IMG/VR virus record: IMGVR_UViG_3300033153_003354
Location: 17,383-81,382 of that record
DNA from: a virus
Direction: 5' to 3' (one strand)
Length of the DNA stretch: 64,000 bases
Part shown: positions 15,009 to 62,807 of the stretch, in pieces
How positions within the stretch are numbered: position 1 is the first letter of the stretch
Layout: the number at the start of each line of letters is the position of its first letter
Made by a program: the position numbers and the translations under genes
The notes under the pieces: generated by a model
The model's database searches: none
What the model saw: the letters and a program-made list of their open reading frames with translations, nothing else
Told to the model about the DNA's origin: nothing

Positions 15009-15009
15009 T

Positions 15010-15261
15010 TTATTCTACCTCCTCATCGGATTTTTCCTTTTTGGGTTTTTTCTTTTTTGGTTTTTTAGAAGTTTTCTCTTCTTTTGGTACTGGTTTTTCT
15101 CCTGCACCAGATTCTATCTTTGGTTTTTCTTTTCTAAAACCAAGTTTAAGTTCTATTTGTTCTATTCTCGATTCTAAATTTTTCTTTTGTTCTTTATCAA
15201 CAGTTGTATTTAATGTAAATCTCAATCGTTGCAACTGTTGAATATCGTGTTGTTTCGTCAT
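15010..15261 (-). CDS. Small Lys/Glu-rich protein
   Basis: 83 aa ORF coupled to neighbouring genes. Confidence 0.6.
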   Translation of the reverse strand: MTKQHDIQQLQRLRFTLNTTVDKEQKKNLESRIEQIELKLGFRKEKPKIESGAGEKPVPKEEKTSKKPKKKKPKKEKSDEEVE

Positions 15262-30132: not shown

Positions 30133-31713
30133 TTAACCCTTTCTGAAAAATTTATCTATTTTACTGGAAACACCATTTCTTATTCCCGGCAACATTGCAG
30201 AGATTAAATTAGATCCGGCTGTTCCTGCACTCATGTCTGTACCCAAAGCAAATTCTGAAGATGAATCATTCCACAAGTTATGACCATGAACCATTAAAAT
30301 AACAGCGTTTACAATATCATCTCTATATCCTTTTTCATGTTTATACCTAAATCTTCCAGAAGGGAGTTTTTTCTTTGTGAATTTCTCAAATTGATTGGTT
30401 TGTTCTTCATCCATCATTAAATTAATCCCTGGTTGTGGTTGTTGCTCTGCCAAAATTGTAAATTCATCTACCATCATTGCTTTTAATTCATTATTATATG
30501 TTATTGGTTCCAAATAATCTATTTTTTCATCTAACAAATCATAAACTGGAGTACCAACACCAGTATAATCAACACATGCAACAACAGGATTATACATATT
30601 CAAATCTTCTTCGATCTCATCAATTATCCTTGCATAAGATTTATCACCTATTCTATTTAAATATATTTGATTTAATGAAAATTTATCATTTGGTAACTTT
30701 ACTTTTTTACCAATTGATACAACTGTTTCTGCTGGTGATTTACCTATATCAATTCCAGCATAATATTCTTGACCATCTATATATGGTTCTTCACAATTGA
30801 TTGTAGTAAGTTCTTTTAATAATAAATATCTCCAAACATTACCAACATCAAAATTCCATTTAAGTAAAAATTCCTGATCAAAAGATGCTTTTGGCGTGGT
30901 TGCTTTCATCGTGTTAACATAATTTAAATTTGTAAGAGGACTTTCTAAATATGTTTGTGTAACAACTCTCATGTCTGTTTTTCCTGCTCGTTCTGCTTTT
31001 TGATATTCGATAAATGTATCATGAAAATGATTTTTCCCAGCGGGTGTTCCTGTTTCAAAAACACGTGCATTAGTAGTTGAACCAGACGGTTTTATATCTT
31101 CATGATATACCCTATCTGATATATCCTGGGATTCGTCCAGTCTTATTTTTGTTGGTGAAAATCCCCTAACATGTGATTGATCTGAAGCAGAAAGAACTGT
31201 AATTTTATTTCCATTTCTAAACTGAACCAATTCTTTAGTGAATTCTTCTGTAAATCCCATTAATATATTGTTCCCCTTTATAAACTTTCTAATATGCCCA
31301 AAGATGATGTCTGCTTGTTTTTTTATTGGAGCATATATGATGGTTTCTTCTGTATCATCTTCGGCATAAATATCTTCATGTATTTCATCTACAGCAACAA
31401 TAAATGATTTTCCGCCTTGTCTATTAAATAAAAACAAACCAAACTGACAATTTCTAGTAACATTTACAACATCCATTTGTTTTGGTGTTATTTCTACTGG
31501 TTTATTTCTTACAGTTAATAAATTTCTAGCAAAAACATCAATATAATTTTCCATACTATCTAAAAATATTTGAAAATCATCTTTGGTTATAGAGTGTTTT
31601 GTATTTGGTATATGACTTCCTTTAACATCTCTAACATCAAAGTAATCAGCAAATTCCTCATCTTTACTAGCTTCTGCCACCGCACGTGGAACATCGTTGG
31701 TTCTAAAACTCAT
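30133..31713 (-). CDS. Terminase large subunit
   Basis: Walker A RQGGKS, Walker B RLDE, motif GTP, RNase H-like nuclease GIDIG ... DDIVNA. Confidence 0.95.
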   Translation of the reverse strand: MSFRTNDVPRAVAEASKDEEFADYFDVRDVKGSHIPNTKHSITKDDFQIFLDSMENYIDVFARNLLTVRNKPVEITPKQMDVVNVTRNCQFGLFLFNRQGGKSFIVAVDEIHEDIYAEDDTEETIIYAPIKKQADIIFGHIRKFIKGNNILMGFTEEFTKELVQFRNGNKITVLSASDQSHVRGFSPTKIRLDESQDISDRVYHEDIKPSGSTTNARVFETGTPAGKNHFHDTFIEYQKAERAGKTDMRVVTQTYLESPLTNLNYVNTMKATTPKASFDQEFLLKWNFDVGNVWRYLLLKELTTINCEEPYIDGQEYYAGIDIGKSPAETVVSIGKKVKLPNDKFSLNQIYLNRIGDKSYARIIDEIEEDLNMYNPVVACVDYTGVGTPVYDLLDEKIDYLEPITYNNELKAMMVDEFTILAEQQPQPGINLMMDEEQTNQFEKFTKKKLPSGRFRYKHEKGYRDDIVNAVILMVHGHNLWNDSSSEFALGTDMSAGTAGSNLISAMLPGIRNGVSSKIDKFFRKG

Positions 31714-33230: not shown

Positions 33231-33368
33231 ATGGTATCATATATCAAAAGAGCAAGAAAAATAGGAGGATCCTTGGTTGTAACAATACCAATGGAAATAG
33301 CAGAAATATTAGAAATAAAAGATCGTGACTTTGTTAAAGTTGTATTGGAAAAGGTAAATGAAAAATGA
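33231..33368 (+). CDS. AbrB/MazE-type DNA-binding protein (45 aa, absent from the ORF track)
   Basis: MVSYIKRARKIGGSLVVTIPMEIAEILEIKDRDFVKVVLEK; leaderless after TTTATATA at 33201; ATGA overlap with tnpB. Confidence 0.88.
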   Translation: MVSYIKRARKIGGSLVVTIPMEIAEILEIKDRDFVKVVLEKVNEK

Positions 33369-34375
33369 TATTGACATTCAAGATTAGACATAACCGAGAT
33401 TTCACTGATGAATTGGTAAAAGCCAAAAAGATAGCAGAATTTGGAATAAAAACAAAGGCTTTATCTTCTGCTGCTGTTAAACATATTGGGTTAAAATCTG
33501 CAATAGCATGTCAAATTTTACGTAAATATTCTAAAAATAAAAAATGTAAATCTGCATCAAACGTATTATTAACAATCCCTGGACAAGTTATAAAACACGA
33601 TAAAGAAAAACAAACAATATGGATTGCTTGTTTAAAACTGAATTTGGATTATTATTTTCGTAATGATTTTGAAAAAATAAATCAAATTGAAATTAATGAT
33701 AAATATGCATTTGTATCAATAACAATACCAGATGAAAAACAAATAAAACCAGAGGGATATATTGGTGTAGATCTAAATACAACTGGTCATTCGGTTGTTA
33801 TTGGAAATCCAGAAACAGGAAAGGTTGTCAAGATGGGTAAAAATGCTCATCATATTCATAAAAAATATAGTAAGATAAGAAAAAATTTACAGAAAAAAGG
33901 CAAATTTGGGAGATTGAAAAAACACAAAAATAAAGAAAATAGAATAATTAAAGATATGAATCATAAGATGAGTAGAAAAATTGTCAATATGGCAAATGAA
34001 AATAATAATGGTATAAAATTGGAAGATTTAAAAGGAATAAAAAATAGAGTTAAATCATCAAAATCATTCAAATATTCTTTGAACAGTTGGTCATTTTATC
34101 AGTTACAGAAAATGATAGAATATAAAGCCAAGATGCTAGGAATACCAGTAATTTATATTGAACCACAATACACAAGTCAGTTGTGTTCAAGATGTGGTCT
34201 TATAGGTAACAGAAATGGTAAGAAATTTAAATGTCCAAGTTGTAACCATGTTGATAATGCCGATGTAAATGCTTCATTCAATATAGCACTACGTCCAGAA
34301 GGTATGTATCAATTCGATGCAGACAGAGATGTATCGGAAGGGTTTAATGGTAATCCTAAAGAGGAAATGGTATGA
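33365..34375 (+). CDS. tnpB: TnpB / Cas12f-like RNA-guided nuclease
   Basis: RuvC-I GVDLN, RuvC-II LEDL, TSQLCSRC...CPSC zinc finger, RuvC-III ADVNASFNIA; all catalytic acids intact; no tnpA in the window. Confidence 0.93.
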   Translation: MILTFKIRHNRDFTDELVKAKKIAEFGIKTKALSSAAVKHIGLKSAIACQILRKYSKNKKCKSASNVLLTIPGQVIKHDKEKQTIWIACLKLNLDYYFRNDFEKINQIEINDKYAFVSITIPDEKQIKPEGYIGVDLNTTGHSVVIGNPETGKVVKMGKNAHHIHKKYSKIRKNLQKKGKFGRLKKHKNKENRIIKDMNHKMSRKIVNMANENNNGIKLEDLKGIKNRVKSSKSFKYSLNSWSFYQLQKMIEYKAKMLGIPVIYIEPQYTSQLCSRCGLIGNRNGKKFKCPSCNHVDNADVNASFNIALRPEGMYQFDADRDVSEGFNGNPKEEMV

Positions 34376-44682: not shown

Positions 44683-45642
44683 GTGAAAATGAAAGTTCTT
44701 TTGATACAAATTGATGGGAAACTCCCAAATCTAGCCCTTATGAAGTTATCACAATACCATAAAGATCGTGGTGATATAGTTGTTCTTGAAAAATATAATC
44801 GTGCTCCAGGATGGGATATTCATAACCCAGATATGGTATATATTTCTTGTATTTGGAAAGAAAATCGTTTAGGTGCATTGGATGCACGAGATTTTTACCA
44901 ACAACGTGGGATAAAAACAATCATTGGTGGATCCGGTGTTGATTTAACTACAAAACTTGATCCAGACATTGAAAGATTGAAACCCGACTATTCATTATAT
45001 CCAGACAACGACAAATCAATGGGCTTTACAACGAGAGGGTGCATAAGGAAATGTGGTTTTTGTATAGTGCCAAAGAAAGAGGGCAAGATATGTAAATGGC
45101 AACATCCGAGAGAGTTTCATAACGAGGACTTTAACAAGATAACTTTACTTGATAGTAATGGTTATGCTATGAAAGATTGGTTCTTTGAGGTTACAGATTG
45201 GTATATGGAACAAGGATTAAAAATCGCTTACAATCAAGGGTTTGATATTAGGATATTGACAGAAGAAATCGCAGGAAGATTGGCAGATTTAAAATATTAT
45301 GAAACCTTACATTTTGCCTTTGATGGTATGGAGTATGAAGAAAAGGTGGTTGATGGTATTCAAATGTTGAAAGATGCAGGGATAAATATAAGATCAATGG
45401 TTCAATTTTTTGTATTGGTAGGTTACAATACCACCAAAGATGAAGATAAATATAGATGTCGATTATTGAAGGAATTAGGTACTGGTGCGTATGTCATGAG
45501 ATATAAAACCACTCCTTGGACAAAGAAAATATATCGTTGGGCTAACAGAAAAGAATTGTTTTGGTCTATTGATATAGATGATTACGATAGAAATCCAAAA
45601 CCAATTATCCCAGAAGCAGATAGTATAATGGAATTTATGTAA
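44683..45642 (+). CDS. Radical SAM protein with Rossmann/B12-binding-like N-terminus
   Basis: TRGCIRKCGFC (CxxxCxxC); PNLALMKLS and IGGSG N-terminal motifs; FVLVGY. Confidence 0.9.
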   Translation: MKMKVLLIQIDGKLPNLALMKLSQYHKDRGDIVVLEKYNRAPGWDIHNPDMVYISCIWKENRLGALDARDFYQQRGIKTIIGGSGVDLTTKLDPDIERLKPDYSLYPDNDKSMGFTTRGCIRKCGFCIVPKKEGKICKWQHPREFHNEDFNKITLLDSNGYAMKDWFFEVTDWYMEQGLKIAYNQGFDIRILTEEIAGRLADLKYYETLHFAFDGMEYEEKVVDGIQMLKDAGINIRSMVQFFVLVGYNTTKDEDKYRCRLLKELGTGAYVMRYKTTPWTKKIYRWANRKELFWSIDIDDYDRNPKPIIPEADSIMEFM

Positions 45643-45723
45643 TTTGATTTATAGATTTGAAAAACCTACAAAACAACATAAAAGTATAAATAGAAGTTAA
45701 CCAATGATGAATTAGGTGAGAAA

Positions 45724-46044
45724 ATGACTAAAAAAGTAATTGAAGGTATATTTTGCAACATGTGTGGTCGTTTTATTAAATATACATATGATAAATATAC
45801 AAAATCTTCAGAATGTATAGGATGTGGAAAACATCTATGTGAAAAGTGTACTTGTGAGATCAATGTAACAACAATCAAAAGACATTGGAAAGAATCTACT
45901 GGTACACTGCCTTATGGAGCTGGTGGTACAATAACATCACCATTTAGAGAGATAAAAATATGTGAAGATTGTCTTCCTAGTGACAACGAGGTTTTGGATG
46001 CAATCACTACATATATCAAAGGCGTTGGTGAGAATGATGACTGA
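45724..46044 (+). CDS. Multi-CxxC zinc-finger protein
   Basis: Four CxxC pairs; AGGTGA RBS. Confidence 0.65.
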   Translation: MTKKVIEGIFCNMCGRFIKYTYDKYTKSSECIGCGKHLCEKCTCEINVTTIKRHWKESTGTLPYGAGGTITSPFREIKICEDCLPSDNEVLDAITTYIKGVGENDD

Positions 46045-46231
46045 AGATTGTAAATCATCTCTTAATAAATTTATTCGCAAACTTACTCATAGACCACTCC
46101 TTACCTATGTAAATATATAAAAGAGTTACTTCACACGTAAGGAGAAATTAATCGCCTTGCAAAGTCGAGTAACCCGAAGATGTATAAATATGTTTAGAAA
46201 AGTTTATATAGTTTGACAACATACTTGTTTT

Positions 46232-46301
46232 GATATAACGGGAAACCAACATGTCGCTTGGTTCATTGTTTCACCTCAACTTAATTTTATCCCGTTATGT
46301 C
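46232..46301 (+). ncRNA. Putative small RNA: 12-bp closing stem with an anti-RBS loop
   Basis: TTTATATA at 46203 places the start at G46232; GATATAACGGGA pairs with TCCCGTTATGTC; loop contains CATTGTTTCACCTC. Confidence 0.5.
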
Positions 46302-46622
46302 TACTATATGATCTTGTGAGTTACACCACTAACAAGTGGGTTTTTCAAAAATTGACCTCACGGTTTTTCTAGGGTGACAATGACAAGGAAAAAGCTGTCG
46401 AGAAAAAGTGAATTTAATAATAAGATATTAACATTTAAATAATCTTGGATCGAGAGATTTAATTAACTTCAACTTTCAAGTTCACTTTCACCCTACTTGC
46501 TTCCAAAATGAAGTGGAACTTATTTTTATGTGTTTGACTAGGGATCATCAACCTTGAATTGGAACTTAAAGGATATACTATTATATAGTCACACAGGTAT
46601 AGAGTGGTAGAGGTGTAAAAAA

Positions 46623-47427
46623 ATGTCCAAAGATGAAACCCAATCGAACAACGAAACGATAAATGCAGTGTGCCAGCTGATAGAGAGGATAATGTTGGAG
46701 GGTGATGATCCATTCGCTCCGCATGTATATCTATCCTCATATCCAGAGTTGGCGATATATAATTTATCGGAATCCGAAATAAAAGAGATATGGGAAAAAG
46801 AGGTGATTAAATGAACATAAAAACAACAAAGACAAAGACCGGATACGAGATAAGAGTGAACGGAAAGATCGTATATAGTGACGATATAGAGGAGGAAATT
46901 TAAATTTTCTATTTGTTTTTCAAATAAAAAGAAGAGGTGAAAAAATGGTCGATAGCACATTGGTCGCTCTTGGGATCACGAGTGGAATTATCGGTTCGGC
47001 AATAATATTAAAAGGACCGATAAAAGATTTGTTTTTATCCCTGGGTGAGAATTTAAAACCTACTCCCCCGACACCAGAGATAACAGTCGAATTTAAATCT
47101 CCGGTTGAGATAAAAAACACGGATATAAATTTCTCGACACCGATAGAAATCCATACATACTCGATGCCTAGGAAGAGAGATAAAAATCCAAAACCGGAGA
47201 TAAAAGAATACTTGCTATGAGGTGGAAAAATGAAAAAAATATATAAAAAACTATTGGTCGATGAATGGCAAAAAGAATTCTCGGTTATTGAGGTATCCAA
47301 AGAGTGTTTTGATATTAGCCCAGAAATTGAAACTGTCGGAACGATGATCGGAATAAAAATTTATTCATTGGAGGATTTAAATTTTCGAATGAATATATTG
47401 ATCGAAAAAGGATTCTCTTTATATTGA
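46623..47427 (+). CDS. Small-gene operon (46623-46814, short ORF from 46811, 46945-47220 membrane-anchored, 47230-47427)
   Basis: GAGGTG RBS before each ORF; CpG-richer composition than the flanks. Confidence 0.6.
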
Positions 47428-47522
47428 GGTTAAAAAATAATTATTTTCAAAATTTTTGGATTTTTTCGATCCGCATTAAAATTTTTCAGAAAAAATAAAA
47501 ATAAAAATAAAAATAAATATCG

Positions 47523-47950
47523 AAAAATCTCTACCAATTGACGACCTTTTATATTTCCGAAAAGTTATAAATATATTTCTCTGGAGCTAGAAATCTCTAC
47601 CAATTGAGTCAATTACGTTTTGGTTTAATTATTTGTCGTTCCGATAAAAAATAAACCAAGTTCCAAAAAATCTCTACCAATTGAGGGTGCTGGGACACAA
47701 AAAAGAGGTGATTTTGTCCAACCGAGCTGTGTCCCAGCGAAGTGATACAGGTCTGCCCGGTTTCTTACAGTGTTTCCATCCGTTTGTAAACCACTATATG
47801 ATGCACGTAGTATAAATACTTTCCTACCCCAAAGATGTTTTGCTGGACAAATGTCCAAATAACCACTTGGTTAAGAGTAAAATGACCGATTATAACACCG
47901 AAATAACCACTAAATTAAATTTTCGTCTGGTCAAAATCCCTACCAATTGA
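47523..47950 (+). repeat. Four direct repeats AAATC(T/C)CTACCAATTGA (iteron- or pac-like)
   Basis: Core CTACCAATTGA at 47531, 47597, 47674 and 47940. Confidence 0.85.
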
Positions 47951-48142
47951 ACAATTTAATAATTATATTGTTTTTAATTATCAAAATGTTATTTCACTAT
48001 GATCTCAAATGTAATCCATAGACGGTGTCATAAACTATCCTTAAACCCACCATAACGCCATTCAAATCTTTAAAACGTATCAAACCATACCAAATCATCT
48101 TTGTTGGCCCAGGATTGACTGTTTGATACCTTAAACGGCGTT

Positions 48143-48586
48143 TTAATCATCCTCATCCAGCTCATTATCATCCAAGATGTCATATTTGTCTAACAATGAT
48201 TTGATCTCACCAGTTTCTTCAGCTTCCTTAACCTCTTTGATAGCTTGGCGCACCAAATATTGTACCATTTTCTTACTTGCCCTCTGACTTACCTTCTTTA
48301 CATGGAAGGATCCAACATTTATGTTTATATTTTGTCGTAATTCCAATATCATCTGTATATCTTGGAAGGCAATTGTCTTTCCCGGCATTTTCGCAGCACA
48401 TCCAGCCACATCCTCAACAATCGTATTCACAACCAGGTTGATCGCATCAATAACTTCAGCAGAGATACGTTTGCCACTCCCATCCTTGAGAGCTTTCCGC
48501 ACCAAAGATTTGTTAATCATCATTGGGAGATCCTCTGCTCGTTGCTCGTCCATGCCTTTCTCTAATATCTCAAATACTTCCATCAT
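48143..48586 (-). CDS. Histone-fold protein with acidic tails and a possible second partial fold
   Basis: INKSLVRKALKDGSGKRISAEVIDAIN...AAKMPGKTIAFQDI matches the alpha1-RIS-alpha2-KTI-x-x-x-D histone signature; GGGGTGA RBS; own TATA promoter. Confidence 0.75.
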   Translation of the reverse strand: MMEVFEILEKGMDEQRAEDLPMMINKSLVRKALKDGSGKRISAEVIDAINLVVNTIVEDVAGCAAKMPGKTIAFQDIQMILELRQNININVGSFHVKKVSQRASKKMVQYLVRQAIKEVKEAEETGEIKSLLDKYDILDDNELDEDD

Positions 48587-49679
48587 ATCACCCCGATTTG
48601 TGGTTTTATCGGATTTTCGACAAATCCAGAAAACGGATCACCAACAATCTATGTCAAAGATGTATAAAAACCTTTCCCAAGGATGATTTTATAGACCCCA
48701 TGGGTCTATCGCCCAAAATACTCCAAAAGTCAGGGGAAGTATATAATCTATTATTATTATATACAATACTGAAACGAAATATTTATCAGTGGTGGTATTT
48801 AAACTTCCACTACTAGAAGTTTAAGTTTATATACTTACATAAATAACAAGTCAAATAAACAAACCATATATTAGAATAATATATGGTATAGTATGCCTAA
48901 ATATCCAAACCTTCTATATATACCTTGACATGTCAGTTGTGGTAGTTCTATTATTACCACTACTGTGAAGTGATAGAATTAAACTATATAAACTTGCACT
49001 GCCAGCCATGTTGTCGTATTATATTATGTATATAATATAGGGATCTGCTTGTTATCTTTCTATTATATATATTTTATGGAGTGTTACTTTTCCATATTTT
49101 GCAATTCTGTGGACCGATTTTAAATTTGATATCCGTTAAACCTCGAAATACTCCATATATTCAATAAAAAGGGGTCAAAACTATCACGGAATCGAAAACC
49201 ACCCAAAATCGAAAAAAAGGGGGGTCATATATATAGATGAAGGAAAAAATAATGTTTTTTTGATAAAGTGTGTTTTTTTACAATATATATAATAATTTCT
49301 ATTACTAGTCAGATAACACCACTAACAAGTGGGATTACAAATGGAATTGTTAGTAAATTAACCAAAGATGGAAATGTAAATTTGACTATCAATCGACTAT
49401 TAAATTCATCATTTTGTTGTTCTGTGTAACTTGCAGTGACATAGATCAACCATATCATCTTTGGTATAGATTACTATAGAAATAAGATTGATGATAAAGT
49501 GGAAAGGACACCCGTGAGTGTTTAAGAATAAAGTGTTGTGATCGTCTGTGTCCTATTCCAAAGATGAATGTACTTGTATGTATATAAATGTATTGGTCGT
49601 TTGATTGTCCGGTTGTTCCGTTAATCCTACGGAGTAATGGATCAAACGGCGTACATATACTAACCATCACAAATCATCT

Positions 49680-50306
49680 TTGGGTCGACACATGGACCTG
49701 TATGGGTGGTTTCTGTGGACAATAAATACTTATACATCTTTGGATATAACATATTATATGATTCCAAAGAGGGATGAAAAACGAGAACAACGAATAATAA
49801 AACGATGTATTAAATTACTTAAATATTATAATATTACAAATGTAAACGTGGTGTTTGATGGTAGGTTGAAACATATGTCTTATTATAATCAATTAAGTAG
49901 AAAGATAGTTTTAAATTCAACCTGGTTATATGCTAATACCCAAACTATGTTTTGGACACGTGTTGTTCTACATGAGATCGCACACGTCATCCATTGGGAT
50001 GAATATATTTGGTTGCAACCATCACAATTTCATAATAATATGTTTAAAGAAATATTCTTTTCTATTGGTGGAACAGGATGTGGGAATGAAACACAAGATG
50101 GAGATTTTAAAAACTTATATAATGTATATAAATGTAATAAATGTGGTTATAAATGGTATTCACCAACAAAATTTATAGACAAAGAACACCCACATATATC
50201 TGATACTTGTGATGGTATGGTAATACATATAGGATCAAAAATACTTTCCACTGGAAGTGTAGACTCAAAGATGAAGTTGAAAACTATTTCCACTGGAAAT
50301 CAATAG
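49680..50306 (+). CDS. SprT-like zinc metalloprotease
   Basis: VLHEIAH, H..MFK, YKCNKCG; true start probably ATG near 49758. Confidence 0.75.
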   Translation: MGRHMDLYGWFLWTINTYTSLDITYYMIPKRDEKREQRIIKRCIKLLKYYNITNVNVVFDGRLKHMSYYNQLSRKIVLNSTWLYANTQTMFWTRVVLHEIAHVIHWDEYIWLQPSQFHNNMFKEIFFSIGGTGCGNETQDGDFKNLYNVYKCNKCGYKWYSPTKFIDKEHPHISDTCDGMVIHIGSKILSTGSVDSKMKLKTISTGNQ

Positions 50307-50364
50307 TGAAATGTACAACATGGTCTATATATCATTGGTTTGGTGTCCCACTTTGTACACTCGA

Positions 50365-50733
50365 TTATAACACAAAAGATTTGGTTGTTGTTTTGTTTGA
50401 CTTGTGTATTGTCTTTATATTGGTATGTATGCCATTCCCATGGAGTAACTTCAAATTTGGTCGTGATGATGTGACTAGTAACATTCCTTTACGTCTGGCA
50501 CTATCTAACACTGCCATATATTCAAGGAATTCCTCTGGTGTTTTATCTGCCTTCAAATAGTTGCATATAGAACACGAACAAACAAGGTTGTCATCGTTAT
50601 CTTTTCCTCCTCCTCTCGATATGGGTGTCAGATGGTCCACAGTCATTATGACGGAATTTATACTACCACAATAATAACAAGTATAATCATCACGTTCCAT
50701 GATTTTGAATTTCTTATTTTTTGAAAGACACAT
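50365..50733 (-). CDS. HNH endonuclease
   Basis: RDDYTCYYCG...TVDHLTPISRGG...NLVCSCSICN..K. Confidence 0.92.
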   Translation of the reverse strand: MCLSKNKKFKIMERDDYTCYYCGSINSVIMTVDHLTPISRGGGKDNDDNLVCSCSICNYLKADKTPEEFLEYMAVLDSARRKGMLLVTSSRPNLKLLHGNGIHTNIKTIHKSNKTTTKSFVL

Positions 50734-50737
50734 TCAA

Positions 50738-51318
50738 TCACCCAACAATAATTATACCTGTAGTTGGAGACATAACCTCAATAACTTCGATCTTTGATTG
50801 TTTTATTTGTTTGTCGGGTCTGTATTGGTCCACAAGATCTATTGGTTTAATCATTCTTCCAACATTAAATTTATAAAACTTCCAACAATCATTGATTGGT
50901 TTGAATGCCCAAATCTTGTTATCATGACCACAATTAAATCGTGCGAATATAAATCCATCCTTTCCTATATAAATACAAGGAGCATGTAATATATCACCAA
51001 ATAATCTATCCATGGTTGCCTTTATATTTACCTTTATATATCCTCTTAACTTATTGGCTGTGAATTTCATTTCCAATCCTCCACATCATCTGAAAATGCT
51101 TTATGTTTTCCTTTGTGTCCTTCTCCTCTGATACATTGACGACCATCTTTGTTTTCATCATCACACCGATCTACAAATTTAGAAATCTTTCTCCCACATA
51201 CACAACAATAATTATCATCTTCGGTAATGTAATCATTGTCACATTTATCACATTTATAAAAAATTGTATATAGTTCTTCTAATCCATCTTCTATTGCTAT
51301 TGTTGTTTTGTTTTTCAT
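50738..51318 (-). CDS. Two hypothetical proteins (50738-51076; Zn-binding 51067-51318)
   Basis: GGTGA RBSs; co-oriented with the HNH gene behind a promoter near 51500. Confidence 0.6.
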
Positions 51319-51683
51319 TTAATCACCCAGGACCGTCTTTGCCAGCAGATCCATAAGGACCGACATATTCATCTTCATTCTTCGCTTCTGATATAGTAAT
51401 CTTACCATCAGAGAATGTGATTTCCACCGTATGTTCATCTATTATATTTACTTTCATCTTTGGTTCACCTTACAACTACATATCAGTAGTAGTATATATA
51501 AGTATCTACCCAAAGATGAATTTAACATTTTATGATTATATGTAGTGATAAATTATTATTTTGTATTCATAAATGATTTATTGGTCCGTTGGTTTTACAA
51601 ATCAATGGATCAAAATGTAACACATCTTTGGATAACAAAGTTTATATATTTCTTGGGTGTTGTTACAATTAGGAGATTAGAAA

Positions 51684-54600
51684 ATGGAACTAATATGGAC
51701 AATATTCGTAGGCGTGTTACTTGCAAATGTAGTTGGATCAGTGGTGACTTTTCTTTTGGTAATGTTGCCATTATCACTATTACAATATGTATTGAAAAAG
51801 AAACTAAATGAACAACTAGTGAAATTATGTGTAGATGCCAAACTAAATCATGTCATTATAGAAAAGTGAAAGGTGGAACAAAATGACCAAAGATGAATTT
51901 AATTGGACCGAAGATAAAGTGATGGATTTTATTGACAAACAAGATGAATTCAAAAAACATTGTCGAGAAGTGGTAGTAACAATTCAAGAAATAAGAACCA
52001 GTAATAATTTCAATTATAAATTCAAAGAATATGATTCTATATCAATTGAAGAAGGAACGGTATTTGTTGAATATGAAGAAGATTTATGTGGTTGTTGTGA
52101 TAATAGAATGTCAATTACATTTCCTATTAAATATCTTTGGGCAACCATAGAGGATTTTGAACAATATGAAAAGGATCTTGAAAAGGCTGCTATGGCAACA
52201 GAAGCATATAGGAAAACGATGCTTGAAGCGGCCAAGTTAAAAAAAGAAATTCTGGAAAAACAAGAATATGATCGTCTTCGGGAAAAGTTTGGTGATTAAG
52301 ATGGGTATATATGAAAAATGTTACAAAGAACAATACGGAGAAGAGTTTGAAGCATGGAAATCAGATACATCCGATACATATAATGAATGTATGGATAAAT
52401 TGATTAATTCAGGAGTTGGCATAATGGATGCTTTCATATTTGTAGAAGAAATAATTTCCGCCACTAGGGAAGAATATGGTGATTAAATGGAACATCAACA
52501 TAGATTTTATCGTGTGACAACAAAAGATGGACTCAAGGGACCATTTGAACCAATAGAAGAACTAATACTAACAATAGGTAGTATAAATATAGAGGATTAT
52601 CCATTATCAATAGAATTAAAAGAAATGACATTTGAAGAATATGAAGATCTACCAGTATGGTTAGGATGGTGAGTGAATGATAACAGTAACACATTGTAAT
52701 AAATGTAAGGGCGATGGATCTTATCTAACTGGTGGAAACAGAGAACGAAAAATATATGGTCCAGGTGGATCACAAACGTTTAAGACATGTAGTAAATGTA
52801 ATGGAACTGGTCATGTTGTTAAAGAGGTGAGTAAATGACATGTTTAGAATGTGGATGCCCAATGATAAGAGAACAGTATGGAAGATGTCAATGTGATTGT
52901 GAGTGGTGCGATCCTGATTTATAGGACCAATAAGTTTATATACTACCATCATTATTAGGTTGTTAAGGTGAAACCAAAGATGGAAAACAAAGTGAAGGTG
53001 GAACATGTGATTAATCATATAAAAATAAAAGAAGAAATACAAAGATTAATAGAATTGGACAAGCAAGAAAGAGAAATACTTCTTGATATTACTAATAAAA
53101 CAGAAAAAGTAATTGCTGATATTAAATTTTTAAATGGTAGAATGCATGCATATAATATGGTATTACATTTAATGGATAAACAAGAATTTCAATATGTGGA
53201 GGATTTGTGAATGGAAAACAAAGTGACAAAGGATGATTTACGAGTATGTGAAGTAATGATTCCAAATGAATTATGTGTGCTGAAGGCAAATAATCATATT
53301 GGTGATGATGTATATATTGTCAGACCACACTCTACCAATTATGATACAAAGATATGTAAGAATTGTACATTTCAACAAATGTGCAGGAATTCACAGTAGG
53401 TGAAACAAAATGATAACATGGTTACTTCTTTGGTTTTTAGGATACCGTAGACTAATTGTAAACAGTAAAGAAACTTGTTTTAAATCCAAAGGTACAGTCA
53501 TTTGGATAGGTAAAGATGGAGTTTTATATTCATGGATGACAGATAGATATTCTATGTTTGGATATTCATGGTTCCGTAAAAAACCAAGTAGAAAATATTG
53601 GGGCGGGTATATTTCTGGTGGATGCTGGGAAAGTTATATTTTAGATGATCTTATTGGATATATAATAAAAGATCGTCCATCAAAGATGAAGGAACAAACA
53701 GAAATACTAGTTATAAAATGCGTTCCAACATTTAGATGTGAATATGGTTTTGAAACAGATAACGTTCTTATAATGAACGATCATCATGTGGAGTGTTACA
53801 CATATGAAGGATAAACGAATTTTTAAATACAAATTAAACATAATCGATAGTCAATATATTCCAATGCCACAAGGTTCACAAATTCTATCAGTCAAAGAAC
53901 AAAATGGAACATTAAATATATGGGCAATAGTAGATATAAATAATGATAATATCAAAAATAGATGGTTTTACATCTTTGGAACAGGAAATGAATTTGATAT
54001 ATCTCTTGATGATGCTAAATTTATTGGCACTGTGGTAATGTCAAATGGTCTAGTATGGCACGTTTTTGATGGTGGAGAAACACAATGAATAAAAATGAAC
54101 AATATCGACACACCTCCCACCTGACCCAGACAGGTGTAAATTATTCTGGGTGGAGCGGGGATCTCTCGGTCCCGTCACCGAGTCCAGGCGGTGAGTATCC
54201 TGGACATCATCTTTGGGTCCATAAACTATATATACTTCCACTACTATAGGGTATTAGAGGTGTCACAAAATGAACCAAGAAACAAACCATAAAAGTGAGC
54301 CACACGACAAGTTCATAGTAAAATGGGTCCAGGAGGAGAATGATGGAAATCTTGTTGAATTAAAAGATGATTTCAACTCACTTCATGATGTAAACGAACA
54401 CATCACTCAACTACGACTCTATGCAGAACATACAGGAAAAACTTTCAAAGTAATATCTATTACAGAGGTGATCTAGATGATCGAAGATGATGTTAAATAC
54501 ATATGTCCAGATGCACCAGGTGGATGCAAATCATTGCATTGTTATCACAAAAATCCACATCAACATATAGATTATTATTGTGACACAGATGGAAAAATAT

Positions 54601-57600
54601 GTGGTCATGTTTGTGAGAAGGTGGAATGATGAAAGGAACAATATATTTTCTAACACATGGAAACGAAAAACCAGAGATAATAACTTATGATGAAGTTGAA
54701 AATGAGGATCATTTCATGAATATGATGGTTGCAGCAGTAATAATCGGAAAAGAAGATGGAATATTCACGGATAAGGCGGTTGGATATTTCAATGGTGTGT
54801 GGTATCATGCCATACCTGAAAAGGAGGCCGAATAATAGCATGTTCAGAGTGTCCACACTGTGGTTGGATGGGTAATCAAATGACTTGTCCAGAATGTGGA
54901 TGGATTTGTGTATATGATGAAAGGGAGGAAGATCAATGAAAACAATAGAAGAAATCAGAGAATTTCTAGTGTCTAATGGGTATGAAATGAAAATAAATTC
55001 TACAAAATATATACAAATAAAACCAAATCAACACGAAGAATATCCCAAAACAATCTTTGGTTTGTCAAATAATGATTCTATTTATGGATCAGTTTGTGAT
55101 GGTTTTTCATGTACACGTGATGATAATCATGAAGGACCGCATGAGGCTGGATTTGAAACTGTAGCAGTTGCGTGGTGGACAACTAAAAATGTACCCAAAG
55201 ATGAATATATGGGTCCATTAGGTGATATGAGAGAACCAATGGTCGTTATATGTCCGAAATGTAAAGGACACGAATTTAATGTTGAATCATGTGATTTTTG
55301 TGAAAGAACTGGTACGATAATCTCATGGATGTTGGTTTCTGATCTTATGAAATGGTTAGAATATCATGCGTGTTATTACGGTTTTGTAAAGAAGGCGGTG
55401 CTTGCTATAGAAACAATAAACCACAAAAACGAAGATGAACAAGTGGATCCAAGTGAAGATAAAATATCATCATCAAAGTGTTCGAAATGTGGTTTTCTTT
55501 ATGAAGGAGAAATTCGAATATCTTGTCCCAACTGTGGATTAATCATTCCACAAGATTGTTTGATAAATAGTGTTGAATTAGATGAACATGACAAGTTAGC
55601 ATTAACACAGTATAAAGACAATGATCTTCAAAAGGAAATCAAAGTCGGAAAAAAGCAAGCAATAAAAAATATAAAATGTTTCTCTAGGAGAACGTTTGAT
55701 TAAAGGTGATTGAATGAAAATTGCATGTGAAGAATGTAGATTTTGGTTGAAAAATGAGCCGGATATAGGCAATTGTAAAAAATTACCTCCAACACCAAAT
55801 TTTGATTTTAGTGGACCAATATCACTGTGGCCCAGAACACGATCCAGAGATTGGTGTTATTCTGGTGAATATAAGGAGAGTGAATAAATGAAAATCATCA
55901 TTGAAGAAGATATTAAAGGAACAGGAACAGTAATAGATATAACAAAAAATGCCATAGTCATTGGATCTGGAAGATATGATATTATCATTTGTACCAATGC
56001 TTGGTTTGAAGATGTGTTTGAATGGGTTATGGATGATATAGATTGGTTGTTACCATTCTTTGGATATATTCAGTGGAATGTGGAGGAATAAAATGACAAC
56101 AGATAAAGTTTTTATAGAAGTATGTTATTGTATTGATAGGTGAAAATATGAGTTATGACATATATCTAATGGATCCACACACCGGAAAAAACCTTGAAAT
56201 TAAAAACAAACATACCATCTCTGGAGGAACATATTGTGTTGGTGGAACTGAACGTCTATGGTTGAATGTGACTTATAATTATGTCAAACATTTTAAAAAA
56301 GTTTTTGGAAAAAAGGAATTAGAATTATCTATGGGAAAACTGCTGAAGAAACAATTCCCATACTTAAGGATGCGATTTCAAAACTCGGAGATGATGTGGA
56401 TGATGATTATTGGAAATCAACCGAAGGAAATGCCAAAGATGCATTGAAAAATCTTCTTAAGTTAGCTGAACTTGCACCTGACGGAGTATGGAATGGTGAT
56501 TAAATGAAAATATCAGCAGGAGTATTCTTTTTATTCGGTTTCCTTTGTGCTACATTTGCATATGCAATACTTTCATTCCTCAACCCATCTGTGGATCCAT
56601 TGTTGATTTTGTGCAGCATTGGGTTTGTTGGTGGTATGTTTGGTATGATCTTCGAGAAAGGTTATGTTTTGTATAACGAAAACAAAGATGAAATAAAAAT
56701 ATTGTATGATAAATATAAATCAAAGATGAATATTGACCAATAAGTATAAATAGTAACATCATTATGTAGTTAGTAGGTGAAATAAAATGACCGACTTGAA
56801 AATAGATTTGAATGTTGTTGTTGAATGCAAAAACTGTGGCAATACACTTGATGTAGATTGTGATTTAGATGCACACCATCTTTGGATAAGTATGAAACCA
56901 TGTAAACATTGTATTTCAATTCTTGTTGAAGAATCAAAAGATAGAATTCAAGAACTTAATTCGATTGGACGAGATCAAGAAGAACGAATACGAGAAATGG
57001 AAGATGAATTAAGTAATAGATAAGGAACACAAAAAAATAACCAAACAAAAGGAGAAAAAAACATGAATGCAAAAGAAATAAAGGATTTGAAGTGGGTCGA
57101 GCTGAACGGAAAAAGATATTTGGCAAATGTCAACAAGGACGAAAGTGGAGTTACAACACTTGATAATTCTCTAGAAATCTATTCCATTGGTGGACATGAT
57201 AATAGGGAAGATTTGAGAAAGTATCTTGAAGTTAAGAATGTTGATGAACTCAAGACAATCACTGTAAGTGGAAACATCACTCTATCAGTCCAGGATCTCA
57301 CGGCACTACAGGTTGAACAGATGACAATGTTCGCAAGTGCAATGAAGAGAGCAAAAGACATTGATACCAAGATGTCTGAGAATGACCGTTATAGATCGTT
57401 CACGAATTAGACGGGATTATCCAGTCTTTTCTTTTTTCCAAAGGAGATGAAACATGTTCAAAACCCCTAATATAATGAAAAACAAAAATGACAAACCATC
57501 ATTGGTAATACCAAAAATATTTCTTGATAATGTATCAGATGAAGATATTGCAAAATTCAGTGATATGATATGTGAAGTGATGAAAGCTGGAGTGATTACA

Positions 57601-60600
57601 CCAGAAGAATTTAAAACTGAATATCCAATTGATGGCAACAAAATAATAATTGAACGTATGAATAAAGACGTAGATCATATCATGGGAGTAGATTGGGCCA
57701 CAAATGATGAATGGGGAATAACAGGATTCAAAGAAGGACATTGGTATGTTTACAGAGGAAAAGGAAATTCAGGGAATTGGAATTGGAATTCACAAGGTGA
57801 AATGGATTTTGTTCTTGATGGAAAACCACATCAAGTAAATAAATCTTTTAGTGATTGTGGTGCTTCATTTCATGATTCTACAGATCCTGAATGTTATTGG
57901 GTTTGGAATGATTTTTTGGAAGATTTCAAAGAAGTTCCATGCCCAACCAAAGACGAACCAATCAATATTTATGATTGCAAAGAAAAATGGACACAGATAA
58001 GAAGACAAGGCGGTAAATCAATATGTGCATTCTTACATGATCCAACAATTCCAGATGGTGTAAAAGAATATTTTCTTGACCAATTCAAGGATGATGTTAT
58101 AGATCCGATCAACGGGATATTGATTTCTGATGAAGATGCAACACCAATAATAAAAAATGTTTTACGTGAAATGGAAAAGCGTGAAATGGAAGGATTTAAC
58201 AATTTGGATATTTGTATGGAAACTGGAATATCTTTGGAACAAATAAACAGAGTATTAGAATTAATAAGGAAAAAGGAGAGGTAAAAATGGACAAAGAAGA
58301 AGATAATTTCTTATTAAAAAACATGAACATCATATCTGATGGTTTAAATACTGAAGAAGAAAAAATTGCACTTGCAAATATATCAACAATTTTAAAATTA
58401 TTATTGATTCAAATGCATCATATATCCAAATCGTATAGTTTAATTGCAAATTTTATAGAAACCGGAGAAGGACCAGATATTGAGATTCAAGAAAATGCTA
58501 GTTTTTATGGGTGATATTATGAAAACATGTGAATGTGGAAGAGAATTAATAGAAATGAATCTACCAATTGAAAATCCAGAAAGTGAAATTTGTTTATATT
58601 GTCATTTTCGGGAAAAATCAAAAAATGTCATACAAATGAATGACCGACAAATTTATACAAAGGTGTGAATAAATGAAACACTGGATAAAAAAGCAAGTAA
58701 CAAATTATAGAACTCCTTTATTTTTTGGCCTCATTAAGAGGAAATCAATTACAATTTGTACTGCTGTTTGTGGTAAAGAAATTAAAACTGACCAAATTGT
58801 AATTGATGATGAAAATTTCACTTCATATATGGGGATGGTTTCATGCCCAGAATGTAAAAAATATACGGATCTACGATTTGAAGAAAATAGAAGGATATAT
58901 GAAATTTCCAAAGATGAACACCCAGAATGTGAACATTATCATGGTTCTCCTTATGCTAACATATGTGTTCCACAAGCTCCTTGGTCGTGTAAACGAACCC
59001 AAATAGAAGGAAAATGCATCATGGAAAATCCATTTTGTGATTGTGAACATGCTGAACCAGAGATGGTTCTGACATGTGAAAAATGTGAAGGTGAATAAAT
59101 GTTAGAATGTCCACACTGTAATACAATGATCCAAAAAGCAGATAACTTTGCTGATGGGTTGAAAGGGAAGGCTAGAAAATCTCATAAAACAAAGGCAAGA
59201 AAAAAATATAAAGGAGATTTCATTTACAAACACTTTGGATTCAGTGGATCCAAGTCAGCACCGAAGAACGCCATGTCAGTAGATATATGTAAGAGCTGTG
59301 GGTGGACATCAGTTAATAGACGGGATGGTGTTAAATACACTAATACTGATGGTTTTGTAACAATTGCATGGAGAAACATGTTTTGTGGTTTGAATATTAA
59401 TTGGAAAGAGATCGTAAGAAGAAATGGGTGGTAAGTAAAATGGGATTATTTGATGAATCTTGTCCACATTGTGATGGAGGTATAAGAAGACCAATAGGTG
59501 GAGATTGGTGGGATTGTAACAAATGTGGCAGTTACGATGAGGGAGATGTGTATGGATTTGCTGCTGATATACTAATAAAATTAATAAAGGAACGTGAATA
59601 AAATGAACAAACTAAAAAAGTGGATCAATCAAATATTAGAAATAACAGAAAGAATCTTTTTAATGAAACCAGAATTAATTTCATGTAAAGAGTGTATGTT
59701 TTGTCTTGGGGAATTACCAGAGATAGAATGGGGTGGATTATGCCGAAGAAAACCACCAACAACAGATGAACAAGGTGATGCTGTTTGGCCAAGGGTTGAA
59801 GATGGGGATAGTTGTGGAGAAGGAATTAGGAGACAATAAAATGGAAATAATATGCACATCATTGGAATTAGATTGTTGTCCACATGGAATAACAAAAGAA
59901 TATGGTGTATCTGTTGAAGCATTCTTTAAATTTTGTGCTAATTGTATCTGTTCAGAAACACCACCACAACCAGTTACATATATTATTGATGAAACAGGAA
60001 TTAGAATTATTTGTAAAAGGTGTGGGTTATTATTTGAACAATTAGATAATGGTTGTCCAAATTGTGGATTATTATTGCCAAATTTACATAAACAATAATT
60101 ATATATACTATCACTTCAATAGGGTTGGTAGAGGTAAACAAATGGATCCAACCGACACACTAATAGATGAACACGAAGAAGGAGTACCAACCGAAGAAGA
60201 ACGTCAACAAATGGTTTTGACAGAATGTTATAGTGTTCTTGAAGAACATGGGATCACTGATGTAACAATTGAATTTCCAAATGCTGTTCGTAACTCATGT
60301 TTTTATCAGCACTTAAAGCGCAGGATTGCATTGTGTAAGAATTGGTTATATGTCAATGATGTTGAAACATTTATGGAAGAAGCTGCTTTACATGAGGTTG
60401 CACATGCAATAACAGATCATGTACATGGTTATGGTACAAAAACACATGGAAAAGAATTTAAGTCTATTGCACAATTAATTGGTGCTGCACCAGGATGTCG
60501 ATTTAAAGGAAATCTACCAACCAAATATGGTGGTGTAAGGTATTGTAGTGATTAAAATGAAAAAATTATGTGTTGGTTGTAAAACAGAATTAAAAACACT

Positions 60601-62549
60601 TGTAGATGTAATGTCGTTTGGTTCACAATCATATTGTGATAATGATAAATGTATGAGATTTGGTCTTGTTACATTAATGGTTATTAATATAGAAGATGAA
60701 CAAATGAAAGAGAGTGATTAGATGTATGAAACTGGAAATGAATTTAAAATAATACTTACAGATTATAACTGTCCACATAAACAAAATGGAAGATGTAAAC
60801 ACACGGGCAACATCACTGATGAACATGGTGTTGGGTTTAAATGGTGTGATGAAAAAATATGCCCGCTTAAAATTGGTGATTGAAATGACTAGAATGATTT
60901 GTGGAGAATGTGGTGAAACACTTTGCAAAGAACTAACAACCCATGATGGTTGTGGTAAATGTCATAATGAAAATTGTTCATTATTTGTTCCATTGGGACC
61001 ACTTTGTGGAATATAATTCATCTTTGGATGTGATTAAAATGAGTATTATAATATGTACTGATTGTGAGAAAAATGTAGATACTGATATTGAAACCATGAA
61101 TAATTTTGATTACAATGATGATGATAAAAGAGAAAATGTATCATATTGTGAAATATGTATGGAAGATCGATGTCGTTCATGTGGAAACATGTTGTGTAAC
61201 ACAAACAAATACTTCGAAGAAGAGAAGCACGAATATACAGGATATGGAAAAACTGAAACATATTGTGTGGGATACCATTGTAGTAATTGTGGTCATAAGG
61301 AGATGTTTTAAATGACAAAAGAAATGATAGATTTTGGAGAATGTAGAGAATGTTCTCTTAAAACAATGACTAGGAAATGGTGGGTTGAATTGGAACAAAC
61401 ATATGATGTAACATATAGTTATCTCCCAGATGTCTATTTAGTTACTGATTGTCCAAAATGTGGAAGAGAATTAAGATTCAACCCTCCTTGGACATGGATC
61501 ATAGAACGTGCATTCAGTATGGGTGGTTAAGTTTTTATATTTGATGTTCTATTACATCATTGGAAGTATAAAATGTTTGAAGAATCGTGTGATGAATGTG
61601 GTAAGGATGGTTTTGATTCTGATAGGTATATTCGTGTGCAGCAATGGCACGCATACAACTTTGAAGATACTCTTGAAAGAGTTTTCTGTTCAATAAAATG
61701 TATGAAAAAATATATCGAAGATTGGGATGATGATCAAAAAAATTGGAATGATGATTAAATGACAACTACATGCCCAAAATGTGGAACAAACTTGAAAAAT
61801 GCACCAGGAATAGGTCCATATTGTCCAAATAAAGAATGTGATGTATCAGATGGTGTTGATGGAACACTTGAATGTTTATCCAGAGATGATGAAATATTCA
61901 ATCCAAAACCAGAAGATTGTTCATCATGGGAAGAAATGTTTCCAGGTGGATACAAACCATTAACACGATTGGACAAAATTGAAATGTGGTTTTATGAGCT
62001 TCCTTACACAATCCCAAAGATGATTAGGAATATTTGTCGATGGTTGTTTTGGCCGAAGTGTGATATATGTGGAAAACCAGCATATTTTGAACATTGTAAT
62101 TTAAAATTCATGGGTAAAGAATTTGATCCTTCAATGCCAGAAGGTTGGTTTTATGTATGTTGGGAATGTAGTTTCAAATATAAAGGGTATGGTTCGGTGG
62201 AATAATGAAAATGACAAAAGAAACAGTTAAAAAAACATGTGATGGATGTTCTTGTGATGTGTCTGTTGTGTATGATAGAAAATCTAAATGTTGTGATATA
62301 TTCTATGTAATGGAATATGTTGATTGTGTCCCATTCGTAACAGAGATCACAAAAATGAGAGAAGAAAGTGAAATTTTACTATGTGATGAATGTGATTCAT
62401 CTTTGGGAATAAAAAATCAAATAGAAAACAATCTACTTGATTATGAAATAAGTAGACTTTCTTCAGAATCCTTTGAATTATATGACAAATCAATATCTAT
62501 GTTGAAAAGAATCATGGAATTAGGAGAAATGAAACACCAAAACATATAA
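51684..62549 (+). CDS. Long array of small early-type genes, many with Zn ribbons or single TM helices
   Basis: Dense plus-strand ORFs with GGTGA RBSs and repeated internal promoters; few recognisable families. Confidence 0.6.
52677..52838 (+). CDS. Second DnaJ-type zinc-finger micro-protein (53 aa)
   Basis: CNKCKGDG and CSKCNGTG. Confidence 0.65.
   Translation: MITVTHCNKCKGDGSYLTGGNRERKIYGPGGSQTFKTCSKCNGTGHVVKEVSK
53786..54088 (+). CDS. Conserved small phage protein (IFKY-x-L...MP.GSQILSV...IWA...GTG...VWHVF family)
   Basis: Recognisable motif pattern of a widespread phage family of unknown function. Confidence 0.7.
   Translation: MWSVTHMKDKRIFKYKLNIIDSQYIPMPQGSQILSVKEQNGTLNIWAIVDINNDNIKNRWFYIFGTGNEFDISLDDAKFIGTVVMSNGLVWHVFDGGETQ
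54114..54205 (+). ncRNA. GC-rich structured RNA with tandem H-type pseudoknots
   Basis: CACCTG/CAGGTG with CCCAGA/TCTGGG; TCACCG/CGGTGA with GTCCAGG/CCTGGAC; central GGGATC/GGTCCC hairpin. Confidence 0.65.
56148..56503 (+). pseudogene. Conserved phage protein (MSYDI...NVTYNY...DDYW..TEGNA...PDGVW family) interrupted at A-AAA-AAG
   Basis: The -1 frame after 56309-56315 gives GIRIIYGKTAEETIPILKDAISKLGDDVDDDYWKSTEGNAKDAL...PDGVWNGD*. Confidence 0.75.
57409..57437 (+). terminator. Hairpin plus U-tract terminator
   Basis: AGAC-GGGATTATCC-AGTCT then TTTCTTTTTT after ORF 57063-57410. Confidence 0.55.
60049..60555 (+). CDS. Second SprT-like zinc metalloprotease
   Basis: ALHEVAHA...HGKEFKSIAQLIGA; true start near 60142 after promoter and GAGGT RBS. 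Confidence 0.8.
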   Translation: MVVQIVDYYCQIYINNNYIYYHFNRVGRGKQMDPTDTLIDEHEEGVPTEEERQQMVLTECYSVLEEHGITDVTIEFPNAVRNSCFYQHLKRRIALCKNWLYVNDVETFMEEAALHEVAHAITDHVHGYGTKTHGKEFKSIAQLIGAAPGCRFKGNLPTKYGGVRYCSD

Positions 62550-62585
62550 ATATTACCATTATCATGTAGTGGTAGGTGAAATCAA

Positions 62586-62807
62586 ATGTCAGATAATAAC
62601 AACAACAACGTGTATGGAGGAGGAGTAGGAATAAGTTTTGTGGTATTCATAGTATTTTTAATACTCAAACTTACAGGAATGATTACATGGTCTTGGTGGT
62701 GGATAACAGCTCCGCTTTGGATTGGTTGGTGTCTATTACCATTAACTGTTATAATTATAGTGTTTGTTGTAATTTTAATTGTGTCTTTGATAACGGATAT
62801 TTGGTGA
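62586..62807 (+). CDS. Small phage membrane protein (LKLTG-x-I-x-WSWWW-x-x-APLW family)
   Basis: GGGVG...FLILKLTGMITWSWWWITAPLW signature. Confidence 0.8.
   Translation: MSDNNNNNVYGGGVGISFVVFIVFLILKLTGMITWSWWWITAPLWIGWCLLPLTVIIIVFVVILIVSLITDIW

Follow-up and report, generated by a model that had tools for sequence, protein, structure and literature searches.

We analysed a 64,000-nucleotide stretch of DNA (the window), which comprises bases 17383-81382 of the IMG/VR virus record IMGVR_UViG_3300033153_003354, a record of 81,382 bp that is rated about 60% complete. The element under study is the open reading frame (ORF) at positions 48143-48586 on the minus strand. It consists of 147 codons plus a stop and translates into 147 residues (the window protein); the database's own gene call takes the second ATG as the start and gives 146 residues. 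ORF-poor stretches flank the gene on either side (47428-48142 and 48587-49679), and it is the only one on the minus strand between them, in keeping with the initial annotation, which described it as standing alone in a control region. That annotation also proposed that the gene encodes a histone with a short α2 helix, on the basis of signature residues and an acidic tail. These elements are indeed present, with KRIS at residues 39-42, GKTIAFQD at residues 69-76 and DDNELDEDD at residues 139-147, and the second-half stretch that it quoted corresponds to residues 96-122. Judged by its translation and by five metagenomic relatives, the ORF is a genuine gene. The models described below point to a divergent histone-fold protein as its product; the virus that carries it is tailed and probably archaeal.

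Predicted histone fold and homodimer

Run exhaustively over 1.84 billion representatives, phmmer matched seven proteins at E ≤ 0.001, five of which are genuine relatives of 145-166 residues (P0003 at 80% identity and P0004-P0007 at 27-31%). The other two, P0008 and P0009 (E 1e-6 and 8e-4), are Ig-like and SprB repeat proteins and were dropped. All members of the family are unnamed metagenomic singletons, none with an NCBI or UniRef source, and the family is very rare, amounting to six sequences among about 15 billion. Six viral-contig scans and one genome-contig scan revealed no further member, and the sole find of a metagenome scan was the 1,153-nucleotide contig of P0004 itself. The family likewise gained no member from a word-index profile search, tblastn against 50,697 phage records gave no match, and no histone family was matched in PHROG.

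Sequence searches pointed to histones. Pfam PF00808 matched residues 29-79 at E 0.03, with 51 residues laid over 56 profile positions, and NCBIfam archaea_histone matched residues 27-77 at E 0.00099, spanning 55 profile positions. The best phmmer matches in the PDB were the histone of M. kandleri (1f1e) and H4 (E 0.18-0.37). For a further PDB search we built a profile from all six members of the family (A1). This profile matched the tandem H2B 8grq_D at E 2e-4, in two stretches of about 11 bits each. Its best single-domain match was the Asgard histone HHoB (9qv6_A, also 9qv5_A) at E 0.005, an alignment that covers α1-L1-α2 and supports the L1 register. Dozens of H2B and H4 chains followed, all at profile positions 21-87 and in a single register. 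In the ESM Atlas feature search, the best rows were histone-fold clusters (score 0.91, 171 shared features), and the ten best family-bearing matches all shared one family or clan. Matches to SAMHD1, exopolyphosphatase and VopS, to an XRCC4-Spc110 chimera (7m3p_A, E 0.054 in the profile search) and to PHROG 27 and 27581 (E about 0.2), together with scattered single-member Pfam and NCBIfam matches, were judged to be due to chance.

We modelled the window protein and P0004 (31% identical) with AlphaFold2. With the family alignment as input, the window protein was predicted to form helices at residues 3-14, 26-37, 43-66, 74-83, 105-125 and 128-134, with a mean predicted local distance difference test score (pLDDT) of 63 and a predicted template modelling score (pTM) of 0.39; blocks over residues 31-80 reached a pLDDT of 75-83. 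The P0004 model had a matching helix layout (mean pLDDT 58, pTM 0.34). A Foldseek search of the PDB yielded no match at E ≤ 0.001. Every listed row down to rank 50 was a histone or TAF entry, and the best local fit was to the bacterial histone HBb (9f0e_A; template modelling score (TM) by target 0.77, root-mean-square deviation (rmsd) 1.9 over 56 columns, probability 1.00, E 0.099). In a second look with VIA-align, all 50 entries were histone-fold by title (Z 5.6-6.5), headed by HBb 8fvx (Z 6.5, rmsd 3.1, 63 residues aligned). An exhaustive VIA-align search of 48,161 chains, which is independent of Foldseek, returned 19 chains at Z ≥ 5. Ranks 1-34 of this search were all histone-fold, including TAF12, H2B, HBb, HTkC, H4, HLp, HPhA, NC2 and others, and 5 of the 50 rows (ranks 35, 39, 42, 43 and 45) were not evidently so.

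The fold assignment rests on one fold filling these lists and on its agreement with the sequence matches and the ESM Atlas. Because sequence, feature and fold searches converge in one register, we accept the predicted histone fold and consider it very probable that residues 22-84 adopt the arrangement α1-L1-α2-L2-α3. Structure prediction, which the initial annotation had named as the check that could refute its proposal, gave a histone fold in both AlphaFold2 models and in the fold searches, and the short α2 emerged from the same models and from the profile matches.

Modelling of two copies, another check that had been suggested, gave a histone handshake. The homodimer score was 0.72 in all three runs, compared with 0.00 for the best of three controls; in calibration, 20 of 30 proteins solved as same-chain pairs passed the mark for a dimer, as did 1 of 23 proteins with single-chain structures. 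The runs agreed in at least 61% of contacts, with a partner pLDDT of at least 56. The interface comprises residues 21-81, with α2 crossing α2 at 53:53 and α1 of one chain lying on α2 of the other, and the two copies are therefore predicted to pair by the classical antiparallel handshake. We regard the histone fold and the homodimer, taken jointly, as highly likely.

Type of histone and parts of the chain

The spacing between the L1 arginine and the L2 lysine is 30 residues, which the initial annotation had put at 4 residues shorter than in HMf-type histones. The alignments agree with this count. The window protein shows a 4-residue gap at the α2/L2 junction against H2B and a 3+1 gap against M. 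kandleri 1f1e, the profile spans are shortened in the same way, and structural alignments pair 67 model residues with 71 in H4, H3 and H2B chains. In the models, α2 has 24 residues in the window protein and 23 in P0004, and α3 has 10 residues in both (74-83 and 76-85, pLDDT about 70-80). In Schwab et al. 2024 (PMC11390915), 'α3 histones' are defined by an α2 that is 4-5 residues shorter and an α3 of 3-4 residues. The window protein has the short α2 of this class together with a longer α3. From the HMf type it departs in its α2/L2 region, which is four residues short, and in carrying Gly69 in place of the Arg of the L2 R-x-T motif; K70, T71 and D76 are present in the L2 region. Thus, the models describe a hybrid type that joins a short α2, as in bacterial and face-to-face histones, to a full-length α3. 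The family leans by sequence to nucleosomal types (HHoB, H2B and H4) and by geometry to HBb, HLp and HTkC.

The histone fold is flanked by extensions at both ends (Table 1). All six members of the family have an acidic N-terminal helix followed by an invariant proline, and all six have an acidic C-terminal tail; D13 and P21 are invariant in the N-terminal segment. The best-conserved stretch of the family is residues 85-104, in which a hairpin-like turn around the invariant Gly92 leads into a basic run and then the invariant Ala103, and a beta bridge after α3 is predicted in the P0004 model. Beyond this stretch, a conserved amphipathic helix pair spans about residues 105-138, with Val108 invariant, and the C-terminal helices of P0004 (107-128 and 132-141) match the layout of the window protein. 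The net charge is -5 for residues 1-21, +2 for the core (22-84), +3 for the linker (85-104), +1 for residues 105-126 and -8 for the tail (127-147), giving -7 and an isoelectric point (pI) of 4.9 for the whole protein. The core charge of HMfB is similar to +2. Within the family, whose members are 25-32% identical, basic residues are kept at the columns of K34 (6/6), K39 (5/6), R40 (5/6) and K70 (5/6), and the column of D76 holds Asp or Glu in 5/6. These basic columns match what we take to be the α1 Lys, L1 Arg and L2 Lys-Thr DNA contacts of HMfB.

A further proposal of the initial annotation, that the second half of the protein contains half of a second histone fold, found no support. When the N-terminal and C-terminal halves of the family were aligned with hhalign, the probability was 0.1% (E 0.5). 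Both folds of the doublet histone 1f1e aligned to residues 23-78 alone, and no histone match extended beyond profile position 87. In this region the models place coil and then two helices, of 21 and 7 residues, separated by a turn of 2 residues, which is shorter than a histone L2 would require. An ESM Atlas search with residues 85-147 alone gave histone-fold clusters at 0.75-0.84, which is at the level of noise or a lead. We also noted an in-frame 28-nucleotide repeat (family D7; 48234-48261 and 48483-48510, 249 nucleotides apart, 82%), the copies of which encode similar 9-residue helix segments. The idea that it represents a duplicated α1 was rejected in favor of chance, as the relatives show no such similarity.

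Putative promoter, neighboring features and source virus

A TTTTTATA box lies at 48670-48663, about 84 nucleotides before the ATG, with a purine-rich GAAAGG on its upstream side. Directly after this box is CATCTTTGA (48662-48654), a one-mismatch copy of the 9-mer CATCTTYGG, and a second TATAAAAT-like box lies just upstream together with CATCCTTGG (48685-48677), also a one-mismatch copy. In the window, CATCTTYGG occurs in 51 exact copies on both strands, compared with 1.06 expected from shuffles, and none of these 51 is located at the putative promoter of this gene. The motif-tagged promoter of the initial annotation is consequently retained as to the one-mismatch copies at the TTTTTATA box and not as to an exact motif. 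Several CATCTTYGG copies elsewhere overlap start codons of the opposite strand and form CCAAAGATG. The 5′ leader folded no better than shuffles (z -0.48), and an Rfam scan of 45600-50400 gave nothing above noise.

Table 1. Positions of the gene, its parts and related features (window numbering unless indicated)
Feature	Position	Strand	Remarks
Whole gene	48143-48586	-	Start is the ATG at 48586 or the next ATG at 48583
N-terminal acidic segment, residues 1-21	48524-48586	-	Predicted helix 3-14 (pLDDT < 50); ends at invariant Pro21
Predicted histone fold, residues 22-84	48335-48523	-	α1 26-37, L1 38-42, α2 43-66, L2 67-73, α3 74-83
Turn motif and basic run, residues 85-104	48275-48334	-	pLDDT < 50 in both models
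Predicted C-terminal amphipathic helix pair, residues 105-134	48185-48274	-	Helices 105-125 and 128-134 (AlphaFold2); conserved hydrophobic spacing
Acidic tail, residues 135-147	48146-48184	-	Preceded by a conserved aromatic-hydrophobic motif (YD-IL type)
Shine-Dalgarno-like GGGGTGAT	48587-48594	-	Directly 5′ of the first ATG; GGTGA-type sites also precede other listed genes
Putative archaeal-type promoter	48654-48694	-	From sequence and repeat family D3
Large terminase	30133-31713	-	Tailed-virus marker
Portal fused to head-morphogenesis domain	28008-30056	-	Tailed-virus marker
Tail protein	22573-24150	-	Tailed-virus marker
RFC-type clamp loader (AAA + Rep_fac_C) and family B DNA polymerase	12389-13369 and 14007-16415		In the part of the record before the window

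Both flanks of the gene contain repeats. Iteron-like repeats lie 190-640 nucleotides past its stop codon; here, at 47502-47950, four direct repeats (family D1) end in a shared 17-nucleotide core with CAATTG and are spaced 66, 77 and 266 nucleotides from start to start. They could be origin iterons or operator sites. The 1.1-kb stretch upstream of the gene (48587-49679), which is without a convincing ORF, holds inverted copies of a TATA-bearing element of 14-24 nucleotides (pairs I1 and I13) and short hairpins. Two ORFs adjoin the control region, one at 49680-50306 on the plus strand with a weak SprT-like match (E 1.8e-4, under the cut-off) and one at 50365-50733 on the minus strand that is a clear HNH endonuclease (E 1e-9). 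Two TnpB/Cas12f-like ORFs lie farther away on the plus strand, at 33365-34375 (Cas12f1-like TNB domain match, E 9.5e-26) and at 54936-55703 (weak match, E 3.5e-4). On the contig of P0004 (L003), small Cys-rich ORFs at 461-592 and 695-946 follow downstream on the same strand, the first overlapping the stop codon of P0004's histone-fold gene.

The virus is a tailed one, since the window encodes a large terminase, a portal/head-morphogenesis fusion and a tail protein. The terminase had no close phage relative, and its best match was to a Halorubrum virus (E 3e-10, 25% identity). Ten other genes of the window (45724-62807) are preceded by a purine-rich stretch, an 8-nucleotide TATA-like box 41-58 nucleotides before the ATG and then a strong GGTGA-type ribosome site, and sigma-70-type promoters around the gene were not enriched (13 found compared with 11.7 expected). 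An archaeal host is likely because of the TATA-type promoters, the RFC-like clamp loader and the family B polymerase, none of which is proof. The virus is thus probably archaeal, and neither the terminase nor a provirus look-up gave a host taxon; no provirus was found in genome contigs. We found no second histone-fold gene in the 81-kb record, which is about 60% complete. The part of the record before the window also encodes two N6/N4 DNA methylases, a radical SAM protein and a glycosyltransferase.

Possible functions and comparison with known histones

The reading that we favor, at slightly less than even odds, is that of a DNA-architectural dimer acting inside the infected cell. The dimer would bind DNA there via L1/L2 and α1 contacts, and would bend or bridge viral DNA that is being replicated or transcribed, as opposed to packaging it in virions. 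Tailed-virus capsids hold nearly naked, densely packed DNA, which makes virion packaging by this protein unlikely. Dimers may be joined into higher oligomers through the turn motif and the C-terminal helix pair, by analogy with phage and coiled-coil histones, and the acidic N-terminal helix and C-terminal tail might dampen or control DNA binding or attract basic partners. We favor a DNA-binding dimer because the basic DNA-contact columns are kept, because the core carries a charge of +2 and because acidic archaeal histones (clusters 2-5) reportedly keep a basic DNA-binding ridge (PMC13260811).

Several observations weigh against this reading or against the fold on which it builds. Confidence in the two models is moderate (mean pLDDT 63 and 58, pTM 0.39 and 0.34), Z scores of 5-6.5 are 'middling' by the scale of the tool, and the dimer score may reflect resemblance to solved histone dimers and not real binding. 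The profile matches fall under their curated cut-offs (PF00808 with 15.1 bits against 21.4, archaea_histone with 19.5 bits against 50), and PF00808 was detected in only one of the six members (E ≤ 1) and archaea_histone in three. The Arg of R-x-T is absent from L2 (Gly69), and Thr71 is kept in 3/6 members. The whole family is acidic (pI 4.7-5.6, net charge -4 to -14), which is unusual for a DNA binder outside halophiles. The dimer model shows no confident contact beyond residue 81, and so none for C-terminal helices that would oligomerize. Finally, there is no conserved gene neighborhood, L003 being the only relative with flanking DNA.

An alternative that we consider unlikely is that the protein acts against the chromatin of the host, as an antagonist, chaperone or decoy, a role of the kind that the initial annotation had raised. 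Its fold would pair with a host histone, or its acidic ends would capture basic host histones. The result would be looser host chromatin, or viral DNA that is shielded from histones or supplied with them. The acidity of the family and the acidic ends of all six members are consistent with this possibility, as is the archaeal look of the virus, whose host may therefore have histones. In this role the protein would resemble acidic-tailed histone-fold pairs such as the Pol epsilon subunits Dpb3-Dpb4 (POLE3-POLE4), of which POLE3-POLE4 chaperones H3-H4, and the fold matches included Dpb4-Dpb3 (5y27_B, Z 4.3) and the Pol epsilon holoenzyme (6wjv_3, Z 4.1). However, the homodimer is predicted confidently, an α2 that is 4 residues short should, we infer, suit a handshake with HMf-type histones poorly, and the family retains the canonical DNA-contact residues, for which a pure decoy would have no use. 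A more specific proposal, to which we give somewhat lower odds still, is a viral 'anti-histone', an acidic-tailed dimer at the viral replication or transcription machinery that captures, displaces or redistributes the histones of the host archaeon. If true, the protein would function analogously to Dpb3-Dpb4/POLE3-POLE4 or NC2, and a histone mimic used by a virus of prokaryotes to manipulate the chromatin of its host would be seen for the first time.

We think it improbable that the protein is a gene-regulatory factor, whether an NC2-, NF-Y- or TAF-like partner of TBP/TFB or a site-specific binder of the 47502-47950 repeats or of CATCTTYGG. Such a role would fit a gene that stands alone between ORF-poor stretches rich in repeats and TATA boxes, and the top fold matches include chains of TAF12, TAF and NC2 (1h3o_D, Z 6.1; 1jfi_B, Z 5.0); NC2 likewise uses a helix after its histone fold. 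Yet the TAF and NC2 scores are no better than those of true histones, given that differences within 1 Z are ties, histone folds confer little sequence specificity, and L003 is without such repeats, with only the small Cys-rich ORFs after the gene. That the protein is a small helical one with a convergent or chance likeness to histones might be argued from sequence E-values that are all weak and under curated thresholds and from models of only moderate confidence, but it is very improbable, as independent methods converge on one fold in one register and the predicted dimer shows the histone-specific α2-α2 crossing.

Should the acidic tails prove to control DNA binding or to trap host histones, the gene would offer a compact system in which to study the benefit that a histone brings to a virus whose archaeal host has histones of its own. 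Because its scores lie under the thresholds of the histone models, the family would probably be missed by profile surveys that apply strict cut-offs.

Among known histones, the best geometric fit is to bacterial HBb (Bd0055; 8fvx, 9ezz, 9f0e and 8cmp), HLp (9qt0 and 9qt1) and the face-to-face histone HTkC (9f2c), which likewise have a short α2; HTkC 9f2c_A aligned over 57 residues at Z 5.7. These are stand-alone folds of 56-63 residues, whereas the window protein has 147 residues, is acidic, is extended at both ends and has a longer α3. Histones of the HBb, HLp and HTkC type are basic. With nucleosomal archaeal histones (HHoB, 9qv5-9qv7; HPhA, 1ku5; and the HMf type), the window protein has in common the L1 Arg-Val/Ile-Ser, the L2 Lys-Thr and a full-length α3, and it differs from them in an α2/L2 region that is 4 residues shorter, in the absence of the R-x-T Arg and in its acidic extensions.

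The coiled-coil and Methanococcales bridging histones HMfC and MJ1647 also combine a histone fold with a C-terminal helix, which joins histone dimers according to Schwab et al. 2024 (PMC11390915). They are cellular proteins without detectable sequence kinship to the window protein (its five relatives among 1.84 billion representatives being those listed above), and the text available on them mentions no acidic tail, unlike that of the window protein. In an ESM Atlas structure search, unnamed archaeal (Methanobacteriota) clusters of 141 and 160 residues matched residues 16-144 at TM 0.44, which is a lead only.

Recognition of histone-fold proteins in tailed viruses dates from as recently as 2024-2025, and for none of them has a function been tested. 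'Phage histones' of Caudoviricetes were described by Schwab et al. 2024 (PMC11390915), and 539 histone-fold proteins from IMG/VR 4 fall into seven clusters (Liu et al. 2025, PMC13681535). As described in these sources, phage histones resemble the window protein in being encoded by tailed viruses and in having a short α2, a loop and a long C-terminal helix (PMC13681535); their function is without experiment, and DNA bridging through C-terminal tetramerization has been proposed. Compared by description only, the window protein differs in the 21-residue acidic segment before its fold, in a predicted α3 of 10 residues instead of 3-4, in keeping the K-T...D remnant of L2 that phage histones reportedly lack, in a loop that is the most conserved part of its family and in its acidic terminal tail. 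As for the C-terminal contact of phage histones, a C-terminal helix pair is predicted in the window protein, and confident dimer contacts end at residue 81.

The 'acidic doublet' cluster of archaeal histones is close in size and acidity (median 143 residues and pI 4.7, compared with 147 and 4.9; PMC13260811), but the window protein has one histone fold and its second half is a different module. In the literature compared, which did not include the supplementary protein lists, no acidic-tailed histone-fold protein of phages or archaeal viruses is described. The combination of an acidic N-terminal helix, a short α2, a full α3, a turn motif and an acidic tail thus fits none of the cluster descriptions in the published text available, and the family adds to the known histones a hybrid design in which a short α2, a full α3, a turn motif and a C-terminal helix pair are set between acidic ends.

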